From an uncultured Anaerolineaceae bacterium (GTDB lineage: Bacteria; Chloroflexota; Anaerolineae; Anaerolineales; Villigracilaceae): a DNA stretch of 39,721 nucleotides. The DNA lies in contig CAZPCR010000002.1 of NCBI GenBank assembly GCA_964585035.1, positions 1 through 39,721 on the forward strand, in the 5' to 3' direction. Below, piece by piece: positions 21,527 to 39,721 of the stretch. The notes beneath the pieces were generated by a model, which was not told the DNA's origin, made no database searches, and saw only the letters and a program-made list of their open reading frames with translations. Position numbers and translations under genes: made by a program. Numbering within the stretch: the stretch's first letter is position 1; each line of letters opens with the position of its first letter.

Positions 21527-22300
21527 ATGGATATTACCAGCCTTCAGAATCCCAAAATTAAACAGCTTGTTAAATTACGAGACGATAAAAAACAGCGAAA
21601 ACTTGAAAAAATGATGCTCGTTGAAGGTTGGGAAGAAATCAACCTTGCACTCGCAGCTGGGTATCATCCACATACTATTTTAATTTCTCCGGACCTTACC
21701 AATCGTCAAGGTGATATTGATTCCGCAGAGACACTAACTGTATCCCAAGCCGTGTTTGAAAAGATCTCATACAGAGATAATCCAGACGGGTGGTTGGCGG
21801 TTTTTTCTACACCATCGAAATCGCTTCAGGATATAAAACTTAGTACGGTGCCATTTCTGATCGTGGCAGAATCAATCGAGAAACCAGGCAACCTTGGCGC
21901 TATTTTGCGAACAGCCGATGCAGCCGGGGTGGATGCAATTCTTGTTTGCGATCCACACACGGATATTTATAATCCTAATGTTGTGCGGGCTTCCCGGGGG
22001 ACGCTGTTTGCGGTTCCAACCGTCGAGTTATCAAATATAGATGCTTTCAATTTCCTGCGGGACCATCAGATTAACATCCTCGCGGCTACACCGCAGGCAG
22101 AAGAAGAATATTCGCAGCATAATCTAAGCGGCTCATTAGCGATCACAGTGGGGACCGAAGATAAAGGCCTTTCCGATTTCTGGCTAGAAAAAGCTAATCT
22201 CAAAGTAAAGATTCCGATGGTGGGTAAGGTCAACTCGTTAAATGTATCGATCGCTACTGCTGTAATTGTCTATGAAGCTAAGAGGCAGCGAAATTTATAA
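21527..22300 (+). CDS. SpoU/TrmH-family RNA methyltransferase (RlmB/TrmH-like, with N-terminal substrate-binding domain)
   Basis: KPGNLGAILRTADAAGVD, GTEDKGLS and IPMVGKVNSLNVSIATAVIVYE. Confidence 0.9.
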   Translation: MDITSLQNPKIKQLVKLRDDKKQRKLEKMMLVEGWEEINLALAAGYHPHTILISPDLTNRQGDIDSAETLTVSQAVFEKISYRDNPDGWLAVFSTPSKSLQDIKLSTVPFLIVAESIEKPGNLGAILRTADAAGVDAILVCDPHTDIYNPNVVRASRGTLFAVPTVELSNIDAFNFLRDHQINILAATPQAEEEYSQHNLSGSLAITVGTEDKGLSDFWLEKANLKVKIPMVGKVNSLNVSIATAVIVYEAKRQRNL

Positions 22301-22392: not shown

Positions 22393-24204
22393 TTAAACCC
22401 TCTCGGTCACGCCATATTTTGTCTCAAGGTCATGTCGGAATTGCTGAGTGTATAAAGTGTAATATTGTCCTCGCGCCCTTAGTAGTTCGTTATGAGTACC
22501 CTGCTCGGTGATATGCCCGTCCTCTATAACAAGGATTCTATTTGATTTGCGGATTGTGCTTAAGCGGTGGGCAATGATGAATGTAGTACGGTTGTTCATC
22601 AAGGCTTCCATTCCCCGCTGGATAAGCGCTTCCGTTAATGTATCGACACTCGATGTAGCCTCATCCATAATGAATAATTCAGGACGAGCCAAAACTGCGC
22701 GAGCCAGACTGATCAACTGCTTTTGTCCGACTGAAAGGAGATTGCCCCCTTCGCCGACGTTTTCATCGTATCCATTCACCATGGTTGTAATAAAATCGTG
22801 AGCTCCGGCAATCCTGGCTGCTTCTTCAATCGCTTCATTACTTGCGTCAAGGCGACCATACCGAATGTTTTCGCGCACTGTCCCTGAAAATAAATGTGGG
22901 GATTGCAGTACGATGCCGATCCGTGAATGGATCGATTCCAAGGTGTAATCCGTGTAATCACGATCCCGGATGCGTATCACACCTGAGCTAGGCTCATAAA
23001 AGCGGCATAACAGATTAACAATGGTTGACTTCCCTCCGCCTGTAGGTCCGACCAGGGCGATGATTTCACCGGAATGCACTTTCAACGAAAAATCGGTTAA
23101 TACAGGTTTCCGGTCTTCGTAATAGAAATCAACATGATCGAATTCGATTTCGCCCAGCAAAGTTAAAGCGGGAAAAGCTCCAGCTTTATTATGGACTTCC
23201 GCGGGGCTATCCACTAATTTAAATATTCTCTCCGCGGAAGCGATTGAGTGCTGCATCTCGGCGTAGACACGCGCCAGGTCTTGCACGGGCCACATCATGA
23301 AGGTTAGGTAAGAGACGAAGGCGTTAATGCCGCCAATCGTAATCAATCCCACCTGTGTCTCGATTCCTCCGTAAAAAACGATCGCGCCAAGTGCTAGGGC
23401 GGCGATTATTTGTACGGTGGGGAGGAAGAGCGCGGAGAGCCATGCAGCTCGATAGGATGCATGGTACATCGTGCTCGTCAAGATTTGAAATTCCCTTAGG
23501 TTTTCTTCCTCGCGACCGAGCGCCTTAACCACGCGAACGCCTTGGATATTTTCGTTATAGGCGCCGGTGATTTTGGAATTAGCGCGGCGGCTATTGCGAA
23601 ATTCCACTAGGATTCGCTTGCGGAATTGTACAGCGATCAATACCATGACAGGGATGATGACCGACACGATGAGGGCCAGGTGCCAGTTAATGATCGTCAT
23701 GAAGATCAGGGAAGTTGTTAAGTTCATAAAGGCCCATGTCGTATCTACGACACCCCAGGTCATTAGATCGGCAACCCGGCCGCTGTCTGAAGTAACTCGC
23801 GCTATCAAACGACCAACTGCATTTTGCGCGTAATAAGAAAGCGACAAATCTTGCAGATGGTTGAACATCATCTTTCTCAAGTCGTATTGTATCCGCTCGC
23901 CTAGAACACCGGCCAGGTATATGAAAGTAAATACGGTTACCGCTTGTAAGAGGATCAACGAACCGTAGATGGTCGCGATATGGATCACCGCACCAGGGTT
24001 ACCCAGTTCAATACCGGTATCCACGATCCGCTCGTTCAAGTATGTAAAGTATGCATCACCGGTGGATGTCAGAGCGATGGTAATCAAGAATCCAATTACC
24101 CAGTTTTTATGCGGCTTCATCAAACCAAGGATCCGTTTAAAAACCGGCGATGTTAAATTGGACGTGAATTCTTCTTCCTCTAATTCAATAAAATCGTTTG
24201 ACAT
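22393..24204 (-). CDS. ABC exporter, fused permease/ATPase half-transporter (consensus Walker B, degenerate signature)
   Basis: Six-TM domain, Walker A GPTGGGKST, signature LSVGQKQ, Walker B LFIMDEATSSVD and H-loop IAHRLST. I chose the ATG at 24204 because GGAGG lies 8 nt upstream. Confidence 0.92.
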   Translation of the reverse strand: MSNDFIELEEEEFTSNLTSPVFKRILGLMKPHKNWVIGFLITIALTSTGDAYFTYLNERIVDTGIELGNPGAVIHIATIYGSLILLQAVTVFTFIYLAGVLGERIQYDLRKMMFNHLQDLSLSYYAQNAVGRLIARVTSDSGRVADLMTWGVVDTTWAFMNLTTSLIFMTIINWHLALIVSVIIPVMVLIAVQFRKRILVEFRNSRRANSKITGAYNENIQGVRVVKALGREEENLREFQILTSTMYHASYRAAWLSALFLPTVQIIAALALGAIVFYGGIETQVGLITIGGINAFVSYLTFMMWPVQDLARVYAEMQHSIASAERIFKLVDSPAEVHNKAGAFPALTLLGEIEFDHVDFYYEDRKPVLTDFSLKVHSGEIIALVGPTGGGKSTIVNLLCRFYEPSSGVIRIRDRDYTDYTLESIHSRIGIVLQSPHLFSGTVRENIRYGRLDASNEAIEEAARIAGAHDFITTMVNGYDENVGEGGNLLSVGQKQLISLARAVLARPELFIMDEATSSVDTLTEALIQRGMEALMNNRTTFIIAHRLSTIRKSNRILVIEDGHITEQGTHNELLRARGQYYTLYTQQFRHDLETKYGVTERV

Positions 24205-24267
24205 TTTCTTTGCCTCCACTGAGTTGCTTGATTAATGCCCTCGGCAGTCATATAAGCTTCCCTGGTA

Positions 24268-26106
24268 TCAATCAACACTTGCAACCTCTTGTTCAAGCTC
24301 CGCGTCGATCCGTGTTTGAATATCGTAGATTTGTCGATACATACCATTTTTATCTTTCACCAACTCTTTATGTTGACCCATTTGGAGCACGCGACCCTTA
24401 TTCAACACCAGGATCAAGTCTGCGTTCATTACGGACTGTATTCGGTGCGCAATGATGAACGTGGTCCGGTTTTCCATCAAGTCATAAAGCGCAGAACGAA
24501 TTTCTGCTTCTGTTTCGGTATCCACAGATGATGTCGAATCGTCAAGGATAAGGATTCTGGGATTTTTGAGGAGAGTGCGGGCTATTGTCACGCGTTGCTT
24601 TTGACCTCCGCTCAGGGTTACCCCTTTTTCGCCAACGAGGGTGCCGTAGCCATCCGGAAAAGATAAAATTACAGAATGGATTGCTGCTGCCTGGGCGGCC
24701 CGCTCAACATCCTCTTGTGAAACCTGACGGCCAACGCCATATAAGATATTCTCCCTGATCGAGCGGCTAAATAGGAATGGTTCCTGCTGCACGATACCGA
24801 TCTGTCTACGCAGGTATTCGCGTGAATAATCCTTTAATTCCACTCCATCTAACAGGATCCGTCCCGAGGTATATTCATGGAACCTGGGTAGAAGGTTGAC
24901 CAGAGAGGTCTTTCCAGATCCTGTTGAACCAAGCAGCGCAACCGATTTTCCCGGATTGATATGGAAGGAGATGTTTTTCAGAACATCCGTATTGGCGTCT
25001 TCATACATGAAGGTAACATCTTCAAAGATAATATCTCCAAGAACGGGCCCAACAGGTTGAACGCGCCCTTCCATTAGTGGCTCACGGGCCTGTTTAACTA
25101 TTTCCATCAAGCGACTATAAGAAACCATTCCAGTCGACGTTTGCACGATCATGCGTCCCAGGTTTCGGATCGGCCAGATTAACCATGCTACTAGTCCCAC
25201 ATAGGCGATATAGGTCCCAATGGTAATCTCGCCCCTGATGGTCATCATCGCAGCAAAGACAAAGCCGAACAACATTTGGAAACCCAGCACAATATCGGAA
25301 AGTGGCCAGAAAAGGGAATTCATGATAAGTACCAGCTTCCCTTTTAGGAACTTATTCCAATTATCTTGTTCGAATTTGGTTTTCTCGTAATCTTGCCGGG
25401 CAAACGCTTTTACAACTCGCACACCAGTCAAATTCTCCTGCAGGGTTGTGGAAAGGATCGCTTCCTGCGCCTGATATTCTTCATATCGTTTTGTTATTTT
25501 TTTAAAGAACCACAAAGATACCAGGAGGATAAATGGAATAACCACAACGGATATCCAACCTAGTTTTGCATTTAGATTAAGAATGGCAAACCAGTTTACA
25601 AGGAATAATAAGAAGATGCGCCCTATACCTATGGCCTCTTCGCTAAAGAACCGGCGTAGGGCATCCACATCCGAAGTGACCCGTTCAATCAGGTCACCGG
25701 TAGGTGTCTGGCTGTGATAGGAAAAGCTCAGCCGTTGGATGTGATCGAACAGAAAGTCACGCAAACGCCTGGTTATACCTTCGGCGGTGTAAGCCGCTAA
25801 TCGCCCGGATAGGAATGAAAACGTGCCTTCCAAAGCTGCTAAACCAATAAACCCCAGACCAAGGATTGCCAGCGTCCTGGTTAGCGTCCCACCGATATAA
25901 ACCTGACGGTTCAAAATATCATCTGCAAAGTAGCCCAGAAGCAGATAGGTACAAGTCTTGGACAACGCGGATATCGCAAGGGCGCCTGTCGCACCGAGAT
26001 AGGGCGCGCGGAAATCAGTCATCATACGCCAGATCCCGATGAGTCGGTTATGATGGATGGAATTGCGAAAATCAAATGTATCGATATTGGTTAGTGCTGT
26101 TTTCAT
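24268..26106 (-). CDS. ABC exporter, fused permease/ATPase half-transporter (degenerate Walker B)
   Basis: Walker A GSTGSGKTS, signature LSGGQKQR and Walker B ILILDDSTSSVD (Asp replaces the catalytic Glu). I chose the ATG at 26106. The upstream ORF extension to 26181 is read through the terminator hairpin. Confidence 0.9.
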   Translation of the reverse strand: MKTALTNIDTFDFRNSIHHNRLIGIWRMMTDFRAPYLGATGALAISALSKTCTYLLLGYFADDILNRQVYIGGTLTRTLAILGLGFIGLAALEGTFSFLSGRLAAYTAEGITRRLRDFLFDHIQRLSFSYHSQTPTGDLIERVTSDVDALRRFFSEEAIGIGRIFLLFLVNWFAILNLNAKLGWISVVVIPFILLVSLWFFKKITKRYEEYQAQEAILSTTLQENLTGVRVVKAFARQDYEKTKFEQDNWNKFLKGKLVLIMNSLFWPLSDIVLGFQMLFGFVFAAMMTIRGEITIGTYIAYVGLVAWLIWPIRNLGRMIVQTSTGMVSYSRLMEIVKQAREPLMEGRVQPVGPVLGDIIFEDVTFMYEDANTDVLKNISFHINPGKSVALLGSTGSGKTSLVNLLPRFHEYTSGRILLDGVELKDYSREYLRRQIGIVQQEPFLFSRSIRENILYGVGRQVSQEDVERAAQAAAIHSVILSFPDGYGTLVGEKGVTLSGGQKQRVTIARTLLKNPRILILDDSTSSVDTETEAEIRSALYDLMENRTTFIIAHRIQSVMNADLILVLNKGRVLQMGQHKELVKDKNGMYRQIYDIQTRIDAELEQEVASVD

Positions 26107-26131
26107 AAGATCATTCCTAAATACAGATAAT

Positions 26132-26162
26132 AAAAAAACCACGGTGCAGAGTGCAACCGTGG
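26132..26162 (-). terminator. Intrinsic terminator inside the 5' leader of the ABC exporter operon (putative attenuator)
   Basis: The minus strand reads CCACGGTTGCACTCTGCACCGTGG followed by TTTTTTT. It lies 26 nt upstream of the ABC start codon and downstream of the leader ORF. Confidence 0.75.
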
Positions 26163-26190
26163 CTAATGTTGGAAAAATCACATATGTGAT

Positions 26191-26277
26191 CTAAGGACAG
26201 CCGGCAGGCGCACTTCGCGAATGTATAAAGACCCCAGAAACTTTCTGCAAAGTTATATTAAAAAGTGTGAGTTTCAT
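26191..26277 (-). CDS. Putative 28-aa leader peptide (MKLTLFNITLQKVSGVFIHSRSAPAGCP)
   Basis: An ATG preceded by AAAGGAGG with an 8-nt spacer. The ORF ends about 20 nt before the terminator stem. It was too short for the supplied ORF track. Confidence 0.5.
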   Translation of the reverse strand: MKLTLFNITLQKVSGVFIHSRSAPAGCP

Positions 26278-26321
26278 GAAATGCGCCTCCTTTCTTTTGA
26301 TGGGTTTATTAGAGCGCGATT

Positions 26322-26351
26322 AGTTTATCATGTAGAATTGATGGGTGTCAA
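26322..26351 (-). promoter_or_regulatory. Sigma70-type promoter for the leader/ABC operon
   Basis: Minus strand: TTGACA (26351-26346), an 18-nt spacer ending in TGA, then TAAACT (26327-26322), which gives an extended -10-like TGnTAAACT. Confidence 0.5.
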
Positions 26352-26414
26352 GGTAATATCGTAGTACTATGGGAAACCAATATTTTAAATTATGTGTTTT
26401 AATTGGCAGAGATC

Positions 26415-26999
26415 ATGCAAGCGTTTCGAATTACTTTAGATATGTTGAGGAGAAAGTTGCCAGGGAGGGCCGAAGTCCTCTCTGTTTTTAATGTTTTAAT
26501 TTTTGTTGTTTTTGGATGGTCGATCCGGGGGTTTCTATATGAAATTCCATCTTTTTTGCTCTACCTCAATCTTGGGGATATGACTGCCGTCGTTTTCTAC
26601 ATGATGGCATTTGCGTTTTTAGAATGTGTTCTACTGACAGCTGGGCTCGTACTGGTAAGTCTTATTCTGCCTTCGACTTGGTTAAAAACCGGTTTCGCTT
26701 ATAAAGGTTTCTTGATAATTCTCGTTGCCACAACGGGTTTTATTTTGTTCCAGGGCTACTACAAGGTTGGTTTTTTCCAAAATCTTATTAATAACGATTA
26801 CTCTCCATTTCGGCCCGTATTAATTGGTATGGTTTTAGGTTTAGTACTACTGGCTGGATTGTTTTGGCTTTTTCATAATAGACCTCGGTTGCAAAAATAT
26901 TTATCAGCTTTCATAGATCAATTTAGTGTTTTCTCTTATATTTATGTACCGCTGGGAGTAATAGGCATTCTGGTGGTATTTGTGAGAAACATATTTTAG
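26415..26999 (+). CDS. Integral membrane protein, unknown function
   Basis: About 5-6 hydrophobic helices and no recognisable motif. The start is uncertain (TTG at 26403 or ATG at 26415). Confidence 0.6.
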   Translation: MQAFRITLDMLRRKLPGRAEVLSVFNVLIFVVFGWSIRGFLYEIPSFLLYLNLGDMTAVVFYMMAFAFLECVLLTAGLVLVSLILPSTWLKTGFAYKGFLIILVATTGFILFQGYYKVGFFQNLINNDYSPFRPVLIGMVLGLVLLAGLFWLFHNRPRLQKYLSAFIDQFSVFSYIYVPLGVIGILVVFVRNIF

Positions 27000-27008
27000 G
27001 GTTAAACC

Positions 27009-28541
27009 ATGCGGTCAAAATTCACATTTTCAAGGCGGGACTTTTTAAAACTCACTTCTCTTTTGCCTTTAACATGGGCTGTTCAACCGCTCACGAAGTT
27101 AACCGATGTCCCAAAGGCCACTGATAAACCTAACATAATTGTGTTGGTTTTTGATGCGTTGTCTGCTCCGCATGTGCCGCTGTTTGGATATGTACGGGAT
27201 ACCATGCCGAACTTGGCAAAGTTCGCAGAGAATGCGACGGTTTATCATAACCACTATTCCGCTGGGACTTTTACAGTACCGGGAACAGCATCCCTATTAA
27301 CGGGGTTGCACCCCTGGACGCATCGTGCGTTCCAATTGGGTGCGGGCGGCATTATCCATTCGCAGGTAAACCATCAAATATTTGCGGCGGTTTCCAATGC
27401 ACTTACCACGTATGGTTTTGCCCAGAACAGGTTTGCAGATTTGCTGTTAAGTCAGGCATCTAATTATATCGATGTTCATATCGATAATAGTAGTTTTAAT
27501 GTGGAACGTACTTTTGTCTATAATTCGCCTCTTTTTAGGAACGATGAGCGCATTGCCTACGCCAGTTTCGAAGATAACATTGTCCAAACCGGGGATGGAA
27601 CTGACAGCTCTCTTTTTTGGGGTTCTCTCTATCGACTGTGGGTTTTATTCACAAGGTTAAAGCTTACAAAAGATTTCGGAGAGAACTATCCTACTGGATT
27701 ACCGGATGCCACTGAATTATTTCGCTTGGAAGATCTTGTCGATGGTGCGATTAAAATCCTCGGTGACATAAAAGAACCGGCATTCACTTATTTACATTTT
27801 TATCCACCTCACGGCCTATATCATCCCCTGACTGGATTTGTAAATAAATTCAATGACGGCTGGATACCCGCGGATAAACCCATCCATCCTTTGGCTTACG
27901 ATCAGAATGATGCCGTTTTTTCTAATGCTACCAGGCTGCTATATGACCAATATATCGCGAGCTGGGATATGGAGGTCAGCCGGATTTTCGATTATTTAAA
28001 AACCTCCGGTCTGTTAGATCGGAGTTACGTCGTTATAACATCAGATCATGGTGAAATGTTTGAACGGGGTGAAGTGGGCCACTGGACTCGCTTGATATAT
28101 GAGGCAATTATGCATATTCCTTTGCTTATCTCAACCCCGGGACAAAAAGTGCGAAAGGATGTACAGACAGTAACGAGCAGTGTCGATATCCTTCCTACTC
28201 TCGCTCAAATGGCAGGTGAACCAGTTCCAGCCTGGAGCGAGGGTCAAATTCTTCCGGGACTAGGTGGCATAGAAACCCCAGATCGTAGCATTTTTACAGT
28301 GGATGCAAAGAATAATGCATCTTTCGCGCCATTAACAGAAACTTCAATATCACTTACAAAGGATCAGAATCGTCTAACCTATTATAAATATCCAAATTTT
28401 GGCGAACTATTTGAATTTTACAATCTCACCGAAGATCCGGATGAGCTCCACAACCTTTTTTCCTCCAAGCCGGCAATCGCAATCAAAATGCAGGAGGAAT
28501 TATTACAAAAACTATCGGAAGTGAACAAGCCATTTAATTAA
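27009..28541 (+). CDS. Tat-exported sulfatase-like hydrolase/transferase (alkaline-phosphatase superfamily)
   Basis: Twin-arginine signal SRRDFLKLTSL, PNIIVLVFDALS (metal-binding Asp) and TVPGTASLLTGLHP in place of CxPSRxxxLTG. Also SDHGEMFERGEVGH. Confidence 0.8.
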   Translation: MRSKFTFSRRDFLKLTSLLPLTWAVQPLTKLTDVPKATDKPNIIVLVFDALSAPHVPLFGYVRDTMPNLAKFAENATVYHNHYSAGTFTVPGTASLLTGLHPWTHRAFQLGAGGIIHSQVNHQIFAAVSNALTTYGFAQNRFADLLLSQASNYIDVHIDNSSFNVERTFVYNSPLFRNDERIAYASFEDNIVQTGDGTDSSLFWGSLYRLWVLFTRLKLTKDFGENYPTGLPDATELFRLEDLVDGAIKILGDIKEPAFTYLHFYPPHGLYHPLTGFVNKFNDGWIPADKPIHPLAYDQNDAVFSNATRLLYDQYIASWDMEVSRIFDYLKTSGLLDRSYVVITSDHGEMFERGEVGHWTRLIYEAIMHIPLLISTPGQKVRKDVQTVTSSVDILPTLAQMAGEPVPAWSEGQILPGLGGIETPDRSIFTVDAKNNASFAPLTETSISLTKDQNRLTYYKYPNFGELFEFYNLTEDPDELHNLFSSKPAIAIKMQEELLQKLSEVNKPFN

Positions 28542-29574: not shown

Positions 29575-30558
29575 TTATTTCTCTTTTTCAAATATATCGT
29601 AATATCCTTTATCCAATTCGTCGTTTGAAAGGTGGGCATAACGCTGAGTGACTTGAATATTGCTGTGGCGGGCTAATTCCTGGGCCAGTTTCAAATTTCC
29701 CGAAGCACGTAATACAGTAGTAACAAAATAATGACGGAACGAATGGGGCGTTATGGTTCCAACAGCCTTAACTCCTAACGCCTGGCGAACCCAAAACTTG
29801 ACAATATTGCGGCCACTGGCTGTTGTAATTGTTTTGATTTTTTTGCCGGCACCTTTGTCGTGACGAGCAAAGAGGGGCAGGGCACCCAAAGGCTTTCCAG
29901 ACTCACCGTCCAGGCTGGCGCGAATTGAGAGATAATCCTTCAAAGCCTTCATTGATCGGGAAGAAAACCTTACAACAGCCTGTTTATCGCCTTTTCCAAT
30001 AATGACAGCCCGTCCCTCGTTCCAATCAATATCACCGCGTCGCAGTCCGCAAGCTTCATGGACTCGTAATCCGGTATCTGCAAGGGTCAATAGAAAAGCC
30101 CTATCCCTTAATGCGCGTAACCGCTCTGTCTCATCCTTGATTAACATTAGTTCACTATCTGTTACAAATCCTAAAACGCTTTCTATGTCGTTTATTGGAA
30201 ATTGCGGTAAACGAATACCTGGTCGTCGGGAGCGTTGATGAATGAGCAGACGTAATCGCGGCAGGTTTATATCGCTTAATCGCTCAGCGGCCATATATTC
30301 GTAAAAACCCGCGGTAGCATGTAAATAGAGTTGTTCGGTGGCAGGAGAAAGGTCTTTGAGATATTTAGCCAGCCAAACAATCGAATCTTCTTTGAGTTCA
30401 TTGACAGGTGTGGAAATTGGGTCAAGATTGTTTTTTTTAAGGACCTTTAGAAAAATATTAGTCGCGTTTTTATAGGTACGGGCAGTATGAGCGCTTCTTG
30501 CAAGTTTGATATTATCAAGGTATTTCGCGATTGAAGCAGATATGGTGGTTTTTTCCAT
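29575..30558 (-). CDS. Tyrosine site-specific recombinase / integrase (XerC/D-like)
   Basis: N-terminal SAM-like core-binding domain. Catalytic residues sit in RDRAFLLTLADTGLRVHEACGLR, HSFRHYF and LARHSNIQVTQRYAHL (R..H-x-x-R..Y). Confidence 0.92.
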   Translation of the reverse strand: MEKTTISASIAKYLDNIKLARSAHTARTYKNATNIFLKVLKKNNLDPISTPVNELKEDSIVWLAKYLKDLSPATEQLYLHATAGFYEYMAAERLSDINLPRLRLLIHQRSRRPGIRLPQFPINDIESVLGFVTDSELMLIKDETERLRALRDRAFLLTLADTGLRVHEACGLRRGDIDWNEGRAVIIGKGDKQAVVRFSSRSMKALKDYLSIRASLDGESGKPLGALPLFARHDKGAGKKIKTITTASGRNIVKFWVRQALGVKAVGTITPHSFRHYFVTTVLRASGNLKLAQELARHSNIQVTQRYAHLSNDELDKGYYDIFEKEK

Positions 30559-39639: not shown

Positions 39640-39721
39640 GGGGACGTGCTGGAATTGGCAGACAGGCATGACTTAGGATCATGTGCCGCAAGGCGTGTGG
39701 GTTCAAGTCCCACCGTCCCCA
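39640..39721 (+). tRNA. tRNA-Leu (anticodon UAG), class II with a long variable arm. The window ends at the discriminator base.
   Basis: The cloverleaf folds by hand. Acceptor GGGGACG/CGTCCCC, D stem CTG/CAG with loop GAATTGGCAGA, and anticodon stem CATGA/TCATG with loop CTTAGGA. The variable arm is 13 nt and the T arm is GTGGG-TTCAAGT-CCCAC. Confidence 0.9.

Follow-up and report, generated by a model that had tools for sequence, protein, structure and literature searches.

A leader preceding a heterodimeric ABC exporter in an uncultured Anaerolineaceae bacterium (Chloroflexota) is very probably a translated-leader transcription attenuator of that exporter, as judged from the comparison of related sequences. 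The leader lies on the minus strand of contig CAZPCR010000002.1, positions 1 to 39,721 of which were analyzed (39,721 nt, hereafter referred to as the window), and it consists of a promoter, a small open reading frame (ORF), a small hairpin at the stop codon of this ORF and an intrinsic terminator, followed by the genes for two half-transporters, ABC1 and ABC2. It appears to represent a previously undescribed and widespread family of putative attenuators in Chloroflexota, which also precedes acetyltransferase genes. The comparison supports the conserved ORF, a helix (A:B) between the ribosome-binding site (RBS) and codons of the ORF, the stop-codon hairpin, the terminator and the portability of the whole module. 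We infer, in addition, an antiterminator (B:T), a logic based on ribosome position and the nature of the inducer.

Organization of the leader in the window

A first-pass annotation of this stretch, made by inspection of the sequence, had listed the elements of the leader and interpreted them as a ribosome-mediated attenuator, and we recovered all six of them at the positions given. The promoter (26322–26351, minus strand), identified by a motif scan with a score of 10/12 plus the TG, has a −35 element TTGACA (26351–26346), an 18-nt spacer and an extended −10 element TGaTAAACT (26330–26322), placing the predicted transcription start site (TSS) at about 26315. The Shine–Dalgarno sequence (SD) AAAGGAGG (26293–26286) is located 8 nt 5′ of the ATG at 26277 and overlaps a segment referred to here as the A-box, GGAGGCGCAUUUC (26290–26278), the two together occupying 26278–26293 of the minus strand. 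Translation from this ATG yields the predicted 28-codon ORF MKLTLFNITLQKVSGVFIHSRSAPAGCP (26191–26277, minus strand), which ends with TAG (26193–26191) and is in a frame conserved among relatives. The terminator (26132–26162, minus strand) is a bulged stem-loop, CCACGGTTGCA-CTC-TGCACCGTGG (26162–26139), with a folding energy of −13.6 kcal/mol, followed by U7 (26138–26132); a simple terminator scan overlooked this hairpin because of its one-base bulge. The first-pass annotation argued that there was no upstream gene for this terminator to serve, and the adjacent gene (26403–26999, plus strand) is indeed divergent, which leaves the leader transcript as the sole target of the terminator. The ABC1 gene then starts at the ATG at 26106, preceded by the SD AGGA (26118–26115), a start position proposed earlier that also agrees with the alignment of orthologues. 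The mechanically defined ORF of ABC1 (24268–26181, minus strand) reaches further upstream, to a GTG at 26181, across the terminator and into the palindrome described below, and automatic gene callers could start ABC1 at this GTG, thereby hiding the leader.

These signals are not statistically remarkable in a single sequence: promoter-like sites numbered 6, against 10.1 expected in shuffled sequences, and the z-score for folding of the whole leader was only −2.9. The case for the leader therefore rests on comparison.

Conservation of the leader among Chloroflexota

The comparison set consisted of the best 80 orthologous loci (protein identity 76–93%), all from Chloroflexota and mostly from metagenome-assembled genomes of Anaerolineales; individual loci are designated by L numbers. 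Brevefilum fermentans (L077) is among the relatives with the leader. The first-pass annotation had proposed a check for conservation of the small ORF and hairpin upstream of orthologous transporters, and the leader was found 5′ of the orthologous ABC pair in about 70 of the 80 species genomes and on more than 90 metagenome contigs, the alignment of the leader region extending well past the closest relatives. An ORF of 24–32 codons, usually ending with TAG and encoding the motif …(D/V)AG-x-LP-S-RSAP-(V/I)-D-R, was present in 71 of 81 leaders, and most of the other 10 were variants of the same leader or had a truncated flank. The promoter pattern TTGACW-N16-19-TRNNNT and the SD and ATG of the leader ORF were conserved in all 70 leaders considered, as was a strong hairpin with a T-run, found 49–63 nt 3′ of the leader stop codon (70/70, mean −18.3 kcal/mol). 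The distance from the stop codon to the terminator stem was 22–36 nt (median 24), and is 28 nt in the window.

The segment between the leader terminator and the start of ABC1 was found to vary. L033, L036, L040, L055, L078 and L080 carry a long palindromic insertion here, with the ends CGTCATTGCGAGG…CCTCGCAATGACG, which looks like a mobile repeat of the repetitive extragenic palindrome or miniature inverted-repeat transposable element (REP/MITE) type, and other loci have different GC-rich palindromes at the same spot. In L039, GGAAACATGACCACA is tandemly duplicated at the ABC1 start (2934–2975), generating two possible in-frame starts.

Selection on the leader ORF

For an assessment of the frame of the leader ORF, nearness to the SD was the sole criterion for the start codon, and the nucleotide motif was the sole criterion for the segment referred to as the B-box (see below). 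Of the 72 distinct genome leaders, 71 had the SD-proximal ATG and the B codons in one frame, and this frame was open in all 71, whereas the other two frames were open in only 16–17 of the 72. Seven different spacings between the ATG and the B-box, from 54 to 72 nt and each a multiple of 3, were observed in these leaders. A metagenome replicate, for which the search pattern left the frame free, had 101 of 104 leaders in frame, with 7–10 different spacings across the genome and metagenome sets, and the stop codon was at position +7 or +8 in 99 of 101 metagenome leaders. Frame and openness are thus maintained despite the varied spacing, which argues that the leader ORF is genuine and that selection keeps it open and its frame intact.

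Toward their N-termini, the leader peptides vary; Thr, Ile, Phe and Ser abound in this part, each at about 12%, and a loose consensus M-S-x-x-I-F-T-T-P can be recognized (in the window, the region 26277–26230). This bias could act at the peptide level or the codon level, or could reflect a U/C-rich RNA kept unstructured.

Helix A:B and the stop-codon hairpin

A non-coding box beside the SD, GCGCACUNC, pairs with GN'AGUGCGC within the ORF, the core of the helix being GCGCAC : GUGCGCC, in which the second strand corresponds to the Ser-Ala-Pro codons. In the window, the 3′ strand of this helix is the B-box GAAGUGCGCCUGCC (26203–26216, minus strand), which extends from the third base of the Arg codon through the Ser, Ala, Pro and Ala codons to the first base of the Gly codon. 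The A-box, recognized from the minimum free energy fold, from RNAalifold and from anchored and controlled pair counts, is the 5′ strand of this putative SD-sequestering anti-antiterminator. A:B was the sole helix returned by RNAalifold on the MAFFT alignment; the terminator was missed because its two classes were out of register in this alignment, and it was then analyzed sequence by sequence. In alignment A1, 91% of cells were compatible with A:B pairing, against 22–48% in controls with a slid partner, and the covariation score was 0.179, against 0.016–0.062 in the slid controls, a value reached by none of 500 shuffles. The pair 40:123, which involves the wobble base of the Arg codon, was found as AU (20), CG (13), GU (9), UG (7) and UA (5). 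Helix A:B is therefore well supported by covariation as a predicted structure, and the SD doubles as a strand of this regulatory helix.

Several codons of the B-box region are nearly fixed: Ser is AGT in 67 of 71 leaders, Ala is GCG in 71 of 71, Pro is CCT in 68 of 71, and Asp is GAC in 58 and never GAT. Codon bias was rejected as the reason for these frozen codons and for the conserved TAG, since codon usage in the window is unbiased, with no preference for GCG, CCT or GAC, and TAG is used less than either other stop codon (3 of 34). The wobble bases of the B-box are instead frozen because of the RNA structure, through pairing with the A-box. Variation at the wobble base of Arg(0) had been taken as proof of selection on the peptide, and this argument was withdrawn because the base covaries with the A-box. 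The variant leaders are informative in this respect. All boxes have changed together in L058 (A-box GCGCAUU; B-box AAUGCGCC, encoding RNAP; and, in the terminator, GGCGCAU), the RGAP variant of L073 is compensated in the A-box (GCGCACC:GGUGCGC), and L074 has lost the Ser codon and keeps A:B through a shift in register. Trp replaces Arg in L049, L066, L059 and L077, through a change in an unpaired base. These leaders maintain the helices and not a strict RSAP sequence, suggesting that the RNA level outweighs a strict peptide motif.

In most relatives, the stop codon is enclosed by a small hairpin, GACC/GGUC, the 3′ arm of which starts with the G of UAG, and TAG is conserved because this G is paired. 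The fifth pair of this hairpin flips in the main clade (A-U in 24 leaders, U-A in 24). In the window and in L001, a palindromic hairpin lies directly after the stop codon, partly including it, as the positional equivalent of GACC/GGUC, and the leaders preceding acetyltransferases of the GNAT type have a hairpin starting in or after the stop codon. The perfect 14-nt palindrome ATCACATATGTGAT noted in the first-pass annotation is present at 26190–26177, and its hairpin (26174–26192, minus strand) can be extended to the AG of UAG; its sequence is not conserved, however, and all that has been retained is a small hairpin at the stop codon or around it. Between L001 and the window, the stem of the palindrome is retained and the loop has changed. 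A role of the palindrome as an operator for a protein was rejected in view of its unconserved sequence and its position, some 125 nt downstream of the predicted TSS.

In several leaders of the main clade, a pyrimidine tract that follows the leader stop codon is often CUCCUUUCU, a perfect complement of the SD of the same leader, AGAAAGGAG (for example, L039, 2866–2880; L019; L040). The CUCCUUUCU:AGAAAGGAG pairing could sequester the SD additionally, in one clade only.

A candidate antiterminator

The terminator stems fall into three classes, beginning GCCACGG… (window), GGCUGUGG… and GGCCACGG… (GNAT type). In all three classes and in both gene contexts, the uppermost part of the 5′ arm together with the loop retains the sequence GG(C/U)GCAC. 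This segment, referred to as the T-box (GGUUGCACU in the window, 26158–26150, minus strand), repeats the A-box sequence and is thus also complementary to the B-box, which therefore has two possible partners, the A-box, as indicated by covariation, and the top of the terminator, as indicated by duplex energies. In the window, AGUGCGCC (26214–26207) would pair with GGU-U-GCACU (26158–26150) in a duplex of 8 bp with one bulge (−10.7 kcal/mol), and the family mean for B:T is −14.2 kcal/mol, against −6.6 kcal/mol for other windows of the ORF. Folding in search of mutually exclusive terminator and antiterminator helices had been recommended in the first-pass annotation, in which no convincing antiterminator could be defined by eye; B:T emerged from conservation as a candidate, but the equilibrium folds always retained the terminator.

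Since the terminator always wins at equilibrium, any switch must be kinetic. Transcripts truncated before the 3′ arm of the terminator were folded with in silico ribosome masking. In these folds, without a ribosome, the B-box paired over 4.9 nt with A and 2.5 nt with T; with a ribosome on codons 0–3, these values were 0.04 nt and 6.6 nt, and at least 5 B:T pairs formed in 86% of leaders. B:T also formed (6.8 nt) with a lead ribosome at codons 10–14 and a second one on the AUG, and its pairing fell to 0 with the lead ribosome at codon 18 or beyond. On the basis of motif conservation, duplex energies and this modeling, we consider B:T to be a candidate antiterminator.

Some observations weigh against this interpretation. 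When the ribosome footprint was masked at every codon in 70 leaders, the full-length equilibrium folds kept the terminator with a pair probability of at least 0.93 at every ribosome position, and a thermodynamic switch was therefore rejected. The mean B:T energy of −14.2 kcal/mol was lower than that for 27 unrelated terminators of the same loci (−8.6 kcal/mol, p = 1.5e-8), but the leader terminators share descent and are richer in GC than this null set (0.71 vs 0.56). B:T spans only the upper stem and loop, so that the lower 6–7 bp of the terminator could still form. The B-box is nearly invariant and there is consequently little true B:T covariation; compensating changes were found in L058 and L003, whereas L064, L030, L049 and L073 lack them. 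Finally, the helices do not explain some conserved residues outside them, such as Gly(−5), for which all of its four codons occur, and Arg(+6), which has either AGG or CGN.

Portability of the module and transcript data

A scan of metagenomes with the A and B boxes identified at least 120 stretches; five matches inside coding DNA (L096, L099, L144, L191 and L195) were discarded as chance occurrences. Among the matches listed, ABC1 follows the leader in 75 of 97 testable cases, the complete module precedes a protein of about 195 aa on about 15 contigs, and one leader (L158) precedes a distant ABC paralog (29% identical). By its Pfam match (Acetyltransf_3, E = 6e-17), the ~195-aa protein belongs to the GNAT acetyltransferases, the nearest relatives of solved structure being only weakly similar (an uncharacterized probable acetyltransferase, followed by AAC(6')-type enzymes), with still weaker similarity to SpeG-like and RimJ-like enzymes. 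The leader ORF of this type ends with …DSRSAPV(S/R)R-stop and the terminator is found 51–57 nt after the stop codon. The sharing of one leader by an exporter and an acetyltransferase suggests that the module responds to toxic compounds, ribosome-targeting ones or others.

Most GNAT-type leaders have a second, tandem terminator about 97–108 nt after the stop codon (L105, L107, L111, L112, L119, L142, L146, L163, L175 and L182). The 5′ arm of this second terminator (GGCCAUGGG) resembles that of the first, and the 3′ arm of terminator 1 could pair with it; pairing between terminators 1 and 2 may provide a further alternative structure.

The organism of the window was detected in DNA runs from rhizosphere, bog and peat and in one almost empty metatranscriptome. 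For the relative L039, contigs from sludge metatranscriptomes begin at 2759, just 3′ of the predicted −10 element (2737–2745), and no metatranscriptome contig from the four runs covered the region upstream of this element; the 5′ boundary fits a TSS upstream of the leader. Some of these contigs span the terminator, indicating that read-through RNA exists, contig depth being no measure of attenuation.

A model for attenuation and its alternatives

The interpretation of the leader as a ribosome-mediated attenuator, already proposed in the first-pass annotation, is strongly supported by selection on the frame, the universal terminator at a fixed distance, the covarying helix between the RBS and the ORF and the candidate antiterminator. 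A mechanism with three helices controlled by ribosome position seems somewhat probable to us. The leader would comprise four segments: segment 1 is the A-box, of the GCGCAC type, to which a very strong SD is fused; segment 2 is the B-box, GUGCGCC, overlying the Ser-Ala-Pro codons close to the 3′ end of the leader ORF; and segments 3 and 4 are the two arms of the terminator, the top of the 5′ arm repeating the A-box. In the absence of a ribosome, A:B would form, hiding the RBS, the terminator would form and transcription would end before the ABC genes. During normal translation, the lead ribosome, having reached the end of the ORF, would cover B while RNA polymerase synthesizes the terminator, and termination would again follow. 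Read-through would be expected when a ribosome is at the start of the ORF (codons 0–3), or when a second ribosome is queued behind a stalled one, leaving B uncovered; free B would pair with the terminator, in the upper part of its 5′ arm and in its loop, and delay nucleation of the hairpin. The likely trigger would be slowed or blocked early translation, caused, for example, by ribosome-targeting natural products, and this would fit the products of the genes concerned, which are an ABC exporter of the efflux type and GNAT acetyltransferases. Induction by translation inhibitors is proposed by analogy. The conserved C-terminal residues and the stop hairpin may, speculatively, prolong the stay of the ribosome on B, or pause and synchronize RNA polymerase.

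The conserved end of the peptide raises the question of an arrest-peptide sensor, in which …G-x-L-P-S-R-S-A-P-V/I-D-R-stop, either unaided or together with a small molecule, would contact the exit tunnel and halt the ribosome at RSAP or the stop codon; this stall, rather than an early one, would set the transcriptional outcome. Gly(−5) is kept with GGT, GGC, GGA and GGG used evenly, substitutions at positions −3 and +4 are conservatively hydrophobic, Arg(+6) is kept with a switch between AGG and CGN in GNAT-type leaders lacking the GACC hairpin, and the near-fixed position of the stop codon (+7 or +8, see above) also fits this explanation, as does the R-x-x-P sequence, which recalls the RAGP motif of SecM and RAPP motifs. 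However, most of the conservation is explained by RNA (covariation of the Arg(0) wobble base with the A-box, the frozen Ser, Ala and Pro wobbles, and the Asp-Arg codons forming the GACC arm), and a ribosome on RSAP or the stop codon would cover B, so that termination and not induction would be predicted; moreover, the stop codon, at 22–36 nt from the terminator stem, is too distant for direct occlusion. The motif is also loose: with Arg replaced by Trp in four leaders, Ser replaced by Asn (L058) or Gly (L073) or deleted (L074), and a spacing between Arg and Pro that is not invariant, a strict arrest motif of the SecM/RAPP type was rejected, and, unlike those peptides, the leader peptide of 24–32 residues would be wholly inside the tunnel when the conserved motif is reached, with no N-terminal pulling signal outside. 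We therefore regard an arrest-peptide sensor as rather unlikely. There is a similarly small chance that the leader is dual-coded, the same ~30 nt specifying both the switching helices and a regulatory nascent peptide of a new kind that would slow elongation or termination when a natural product or metabolite binds in the tunnel; if so, this would be the first arrest-peptide sensor in Chloroflexota, with an exporter and acetyltransferase regulon for one compound.

Two explanations dispense with regulation by the translating ribosome. A constitutive leader, in which the terminator would merely lower expression or shield the operon and the small ORF encodes a stand-alone micropeptide or stabilizes the mRNA, is consistent with the thermodynamic dominance of the terminator in all modeled states, but such a leader would not need three mutually complementary boxes in three stem classes and two gene contexts, nor an ORF placed such that a ribosome covers one of these boxes, and there would be no reason to find a micropeptide that partners the ABC exporter before GNAT genes; we consider this explanation improbable to a marked degree. 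The leader might also be a ligand- or protein-binding RNA similar to a riboswitch, with A:B, the stop hairpin and the joining bases as the binding site and translation of the ORF incidental. Many nucleotides are conserved beyond coding needs, the helices covary, and the module moves between gene families, as riboswitches do. Yet the frame is kept in 172 of 176 distinct leaders with many spacings and a consensus SD and ATG, which an untranslated aptamer would not need, and the ~50-nt region between the helices is variable in sequence and in length, the latter only in steps of 3 nt. The search of Rfam 15 also gave no match for the leader at the gathering threshold in the window or five related loci, with only chance-level matches (E up to 10). 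A riboswitch-like RNA thus appears highly improbable, and translation-dependent attenuation with the A:B, B:T and terminator helices remains our preferred interpretation.

The ABC operon and neighboring genes

ABC1 (24268–26106, minus strand) and its co-oriented partner ABC2 (22393–24219, minus strand) both have ABC_membrane and ABC_tran domains, and ABC2 is found downstream of ABC1 in 80 of 80 loci. ABC1 has a degenerate Walker B motif (LILDD) and a canonical LSGGQ signature; ABC2 has a canonical Walker B motif (IMDE) and lacks a canonical LSGGQ signature. The structural relatives of the pair include BmrC/YheI (BmrCD) and TM287/288, and, as judged by these motifs, ABC1/ABC2 is a heterodimer of the type with one degenerate ATP site, as in BmrCD.

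For the hydrophobic multi-pass membrane protein (about 195 aa) encoded by the divergent gene (26403–26999), neither Pfam nor NCBIfam gave a match; a terminator-like hairpin (26461–26484, plus strand) lies inside its coding region, and a gene for a sulfatase-family protein (27009–28541, plus strand) is located 3′ of it. A SpoU/TrmH-family rRNA methyltransferase with an MRM3-like N-terminal domain is encoded convergently to the ABC operon (21527–22300, plus strand). A functional linkage of the operon to this methyltransferase or to the divergent membrane protein was rejected, as synteny was found in only 3 of 80 loci, the closest relatives, and the methyltransferase is probably unrelated to the operon. 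The window also contains a phage-type integrase gene (29575–30558, minus strand) and, at its end, a tRNA gene (39640–39721, plus strand; Rfam, 55.5 bits).

Comparison with known attenuators

The closest system by function is bmrB-bmrCD of Bacillus subtilis, with a different architecture. The likeness to this system pointed out in the first-pass annotation holds for the logic of a translated leader with an intrinsic terminator and for the heterodimeric ABC exporter with one degenerate ATP site, but not for the architecture or the phylum. In bmrB-bmrCD, the leader ORF has 53 codons and contains all three helices, and leader translation is required (Reilman et al. 2014, PMC4191407). The three alternative helices (anti-antiterminator, antiterminator and terminator) have predicted counterparts in the Chloroflexota leader, which would likewise be translated. 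Here, however, the ORF of 24–32 codons ends 22–36 nt upstream of the terminator (28 codons and 28 nt in the window), segment 1 is an RBS-adjacent box and segment 2 consists of codons. The Chloroflexota module, from a phylum other than the Firmicutes, is also found before GNAT genes, and it is set apart by its architecture.

In the Escherichia coli trp attenuator, described by the 1:2 / 2:3 / 3:4 model, the absence of translation leads to superattenuation through 1:2 and 3:4 (PMC4191407). The proposed four-segment logic would be the same, a ribosome on segment 2 favoring termination and a ribosome on segment 1 leaving segment 2 free for the antiterminator. In contrast to trp, segment 1 is located in the RBS and 5′ untranslated region and not in control codons, no single amino acid is specified by a run of successive codons, and the regulated genes encode an exporter and an acetyltransferase and not biosynthetic enzymes. 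In msrDL-msrD, the Rho-independent terminator is adjacent to the stop codon and is directly obstructed by a ribosome that the drug has stalled there (Fostier et al. 2023, PMC10314930). The leaders described here share with msrDL a short ORF followed by a Rho-independent terminator before a resistance-type ABC gene, and a conserved identity of the stop codon. Direct occlusion of the msrDL type was nevertheless rejected, since the gap between the stop codon and the stem (22–36 nt) exceeds the reach of about 12–15 nt; a ribosome at the stop codon is here predicted to favor termination, and TAG is kept through base pairing.

In attenuators of the lmo0919/vmlR type, ribosomes held at or near the leader start reportedly mask the upstream strand of the anti-antiterminator, resulting in read-through. 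These leaders are said to have very short upstream ORFs or none, and to control ABC-F ribosome-protection proteins of Firmicutes in response to translation inhibitors. The Chloroflexota leaders differ in having a longer ORF that runs across segment 2 and in their target, a membrane exporter pair or a GNAT protein. Antibiotic-responsive attenuators of the lmo0919/vmlR type (Dar et al. 2016; Ohki et al. 2005) are among those listed in PMC5418344. By analogy, the logic proposed here appears closest to that of the trp attenuator and of the start-stalling attenuators (lmo0919 and vmlR).

Implications for Chloroflexota

The phylum Chloroflexota is large, has few cultured members and abounds in soil, sediment and wastewater. 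To our knowledge, nearly all known attenuators in which the ribosome serves to sense translation stress come from Firmicutes, Actinobacteria and Proteobacteria, and no description was found in the literature on leader or arrest peptides in Chloroflexi. If the proposed interpretation is correct, such attenuators would be extended to Chloroflexota, with an unusual and portable design in which the RBS-adjacent box would serve as segment 1 and codons as segment 2, with the stop codon in a hairpin. The leader signature would mark genes for which a response to translation inhibitors or to similar stress is likely, namely a highly conserved ABC exporter and several GNAT acetyltransferases, and it would thereby point to candidate intrinsic-resistance or detoxification functions at present without annotation.

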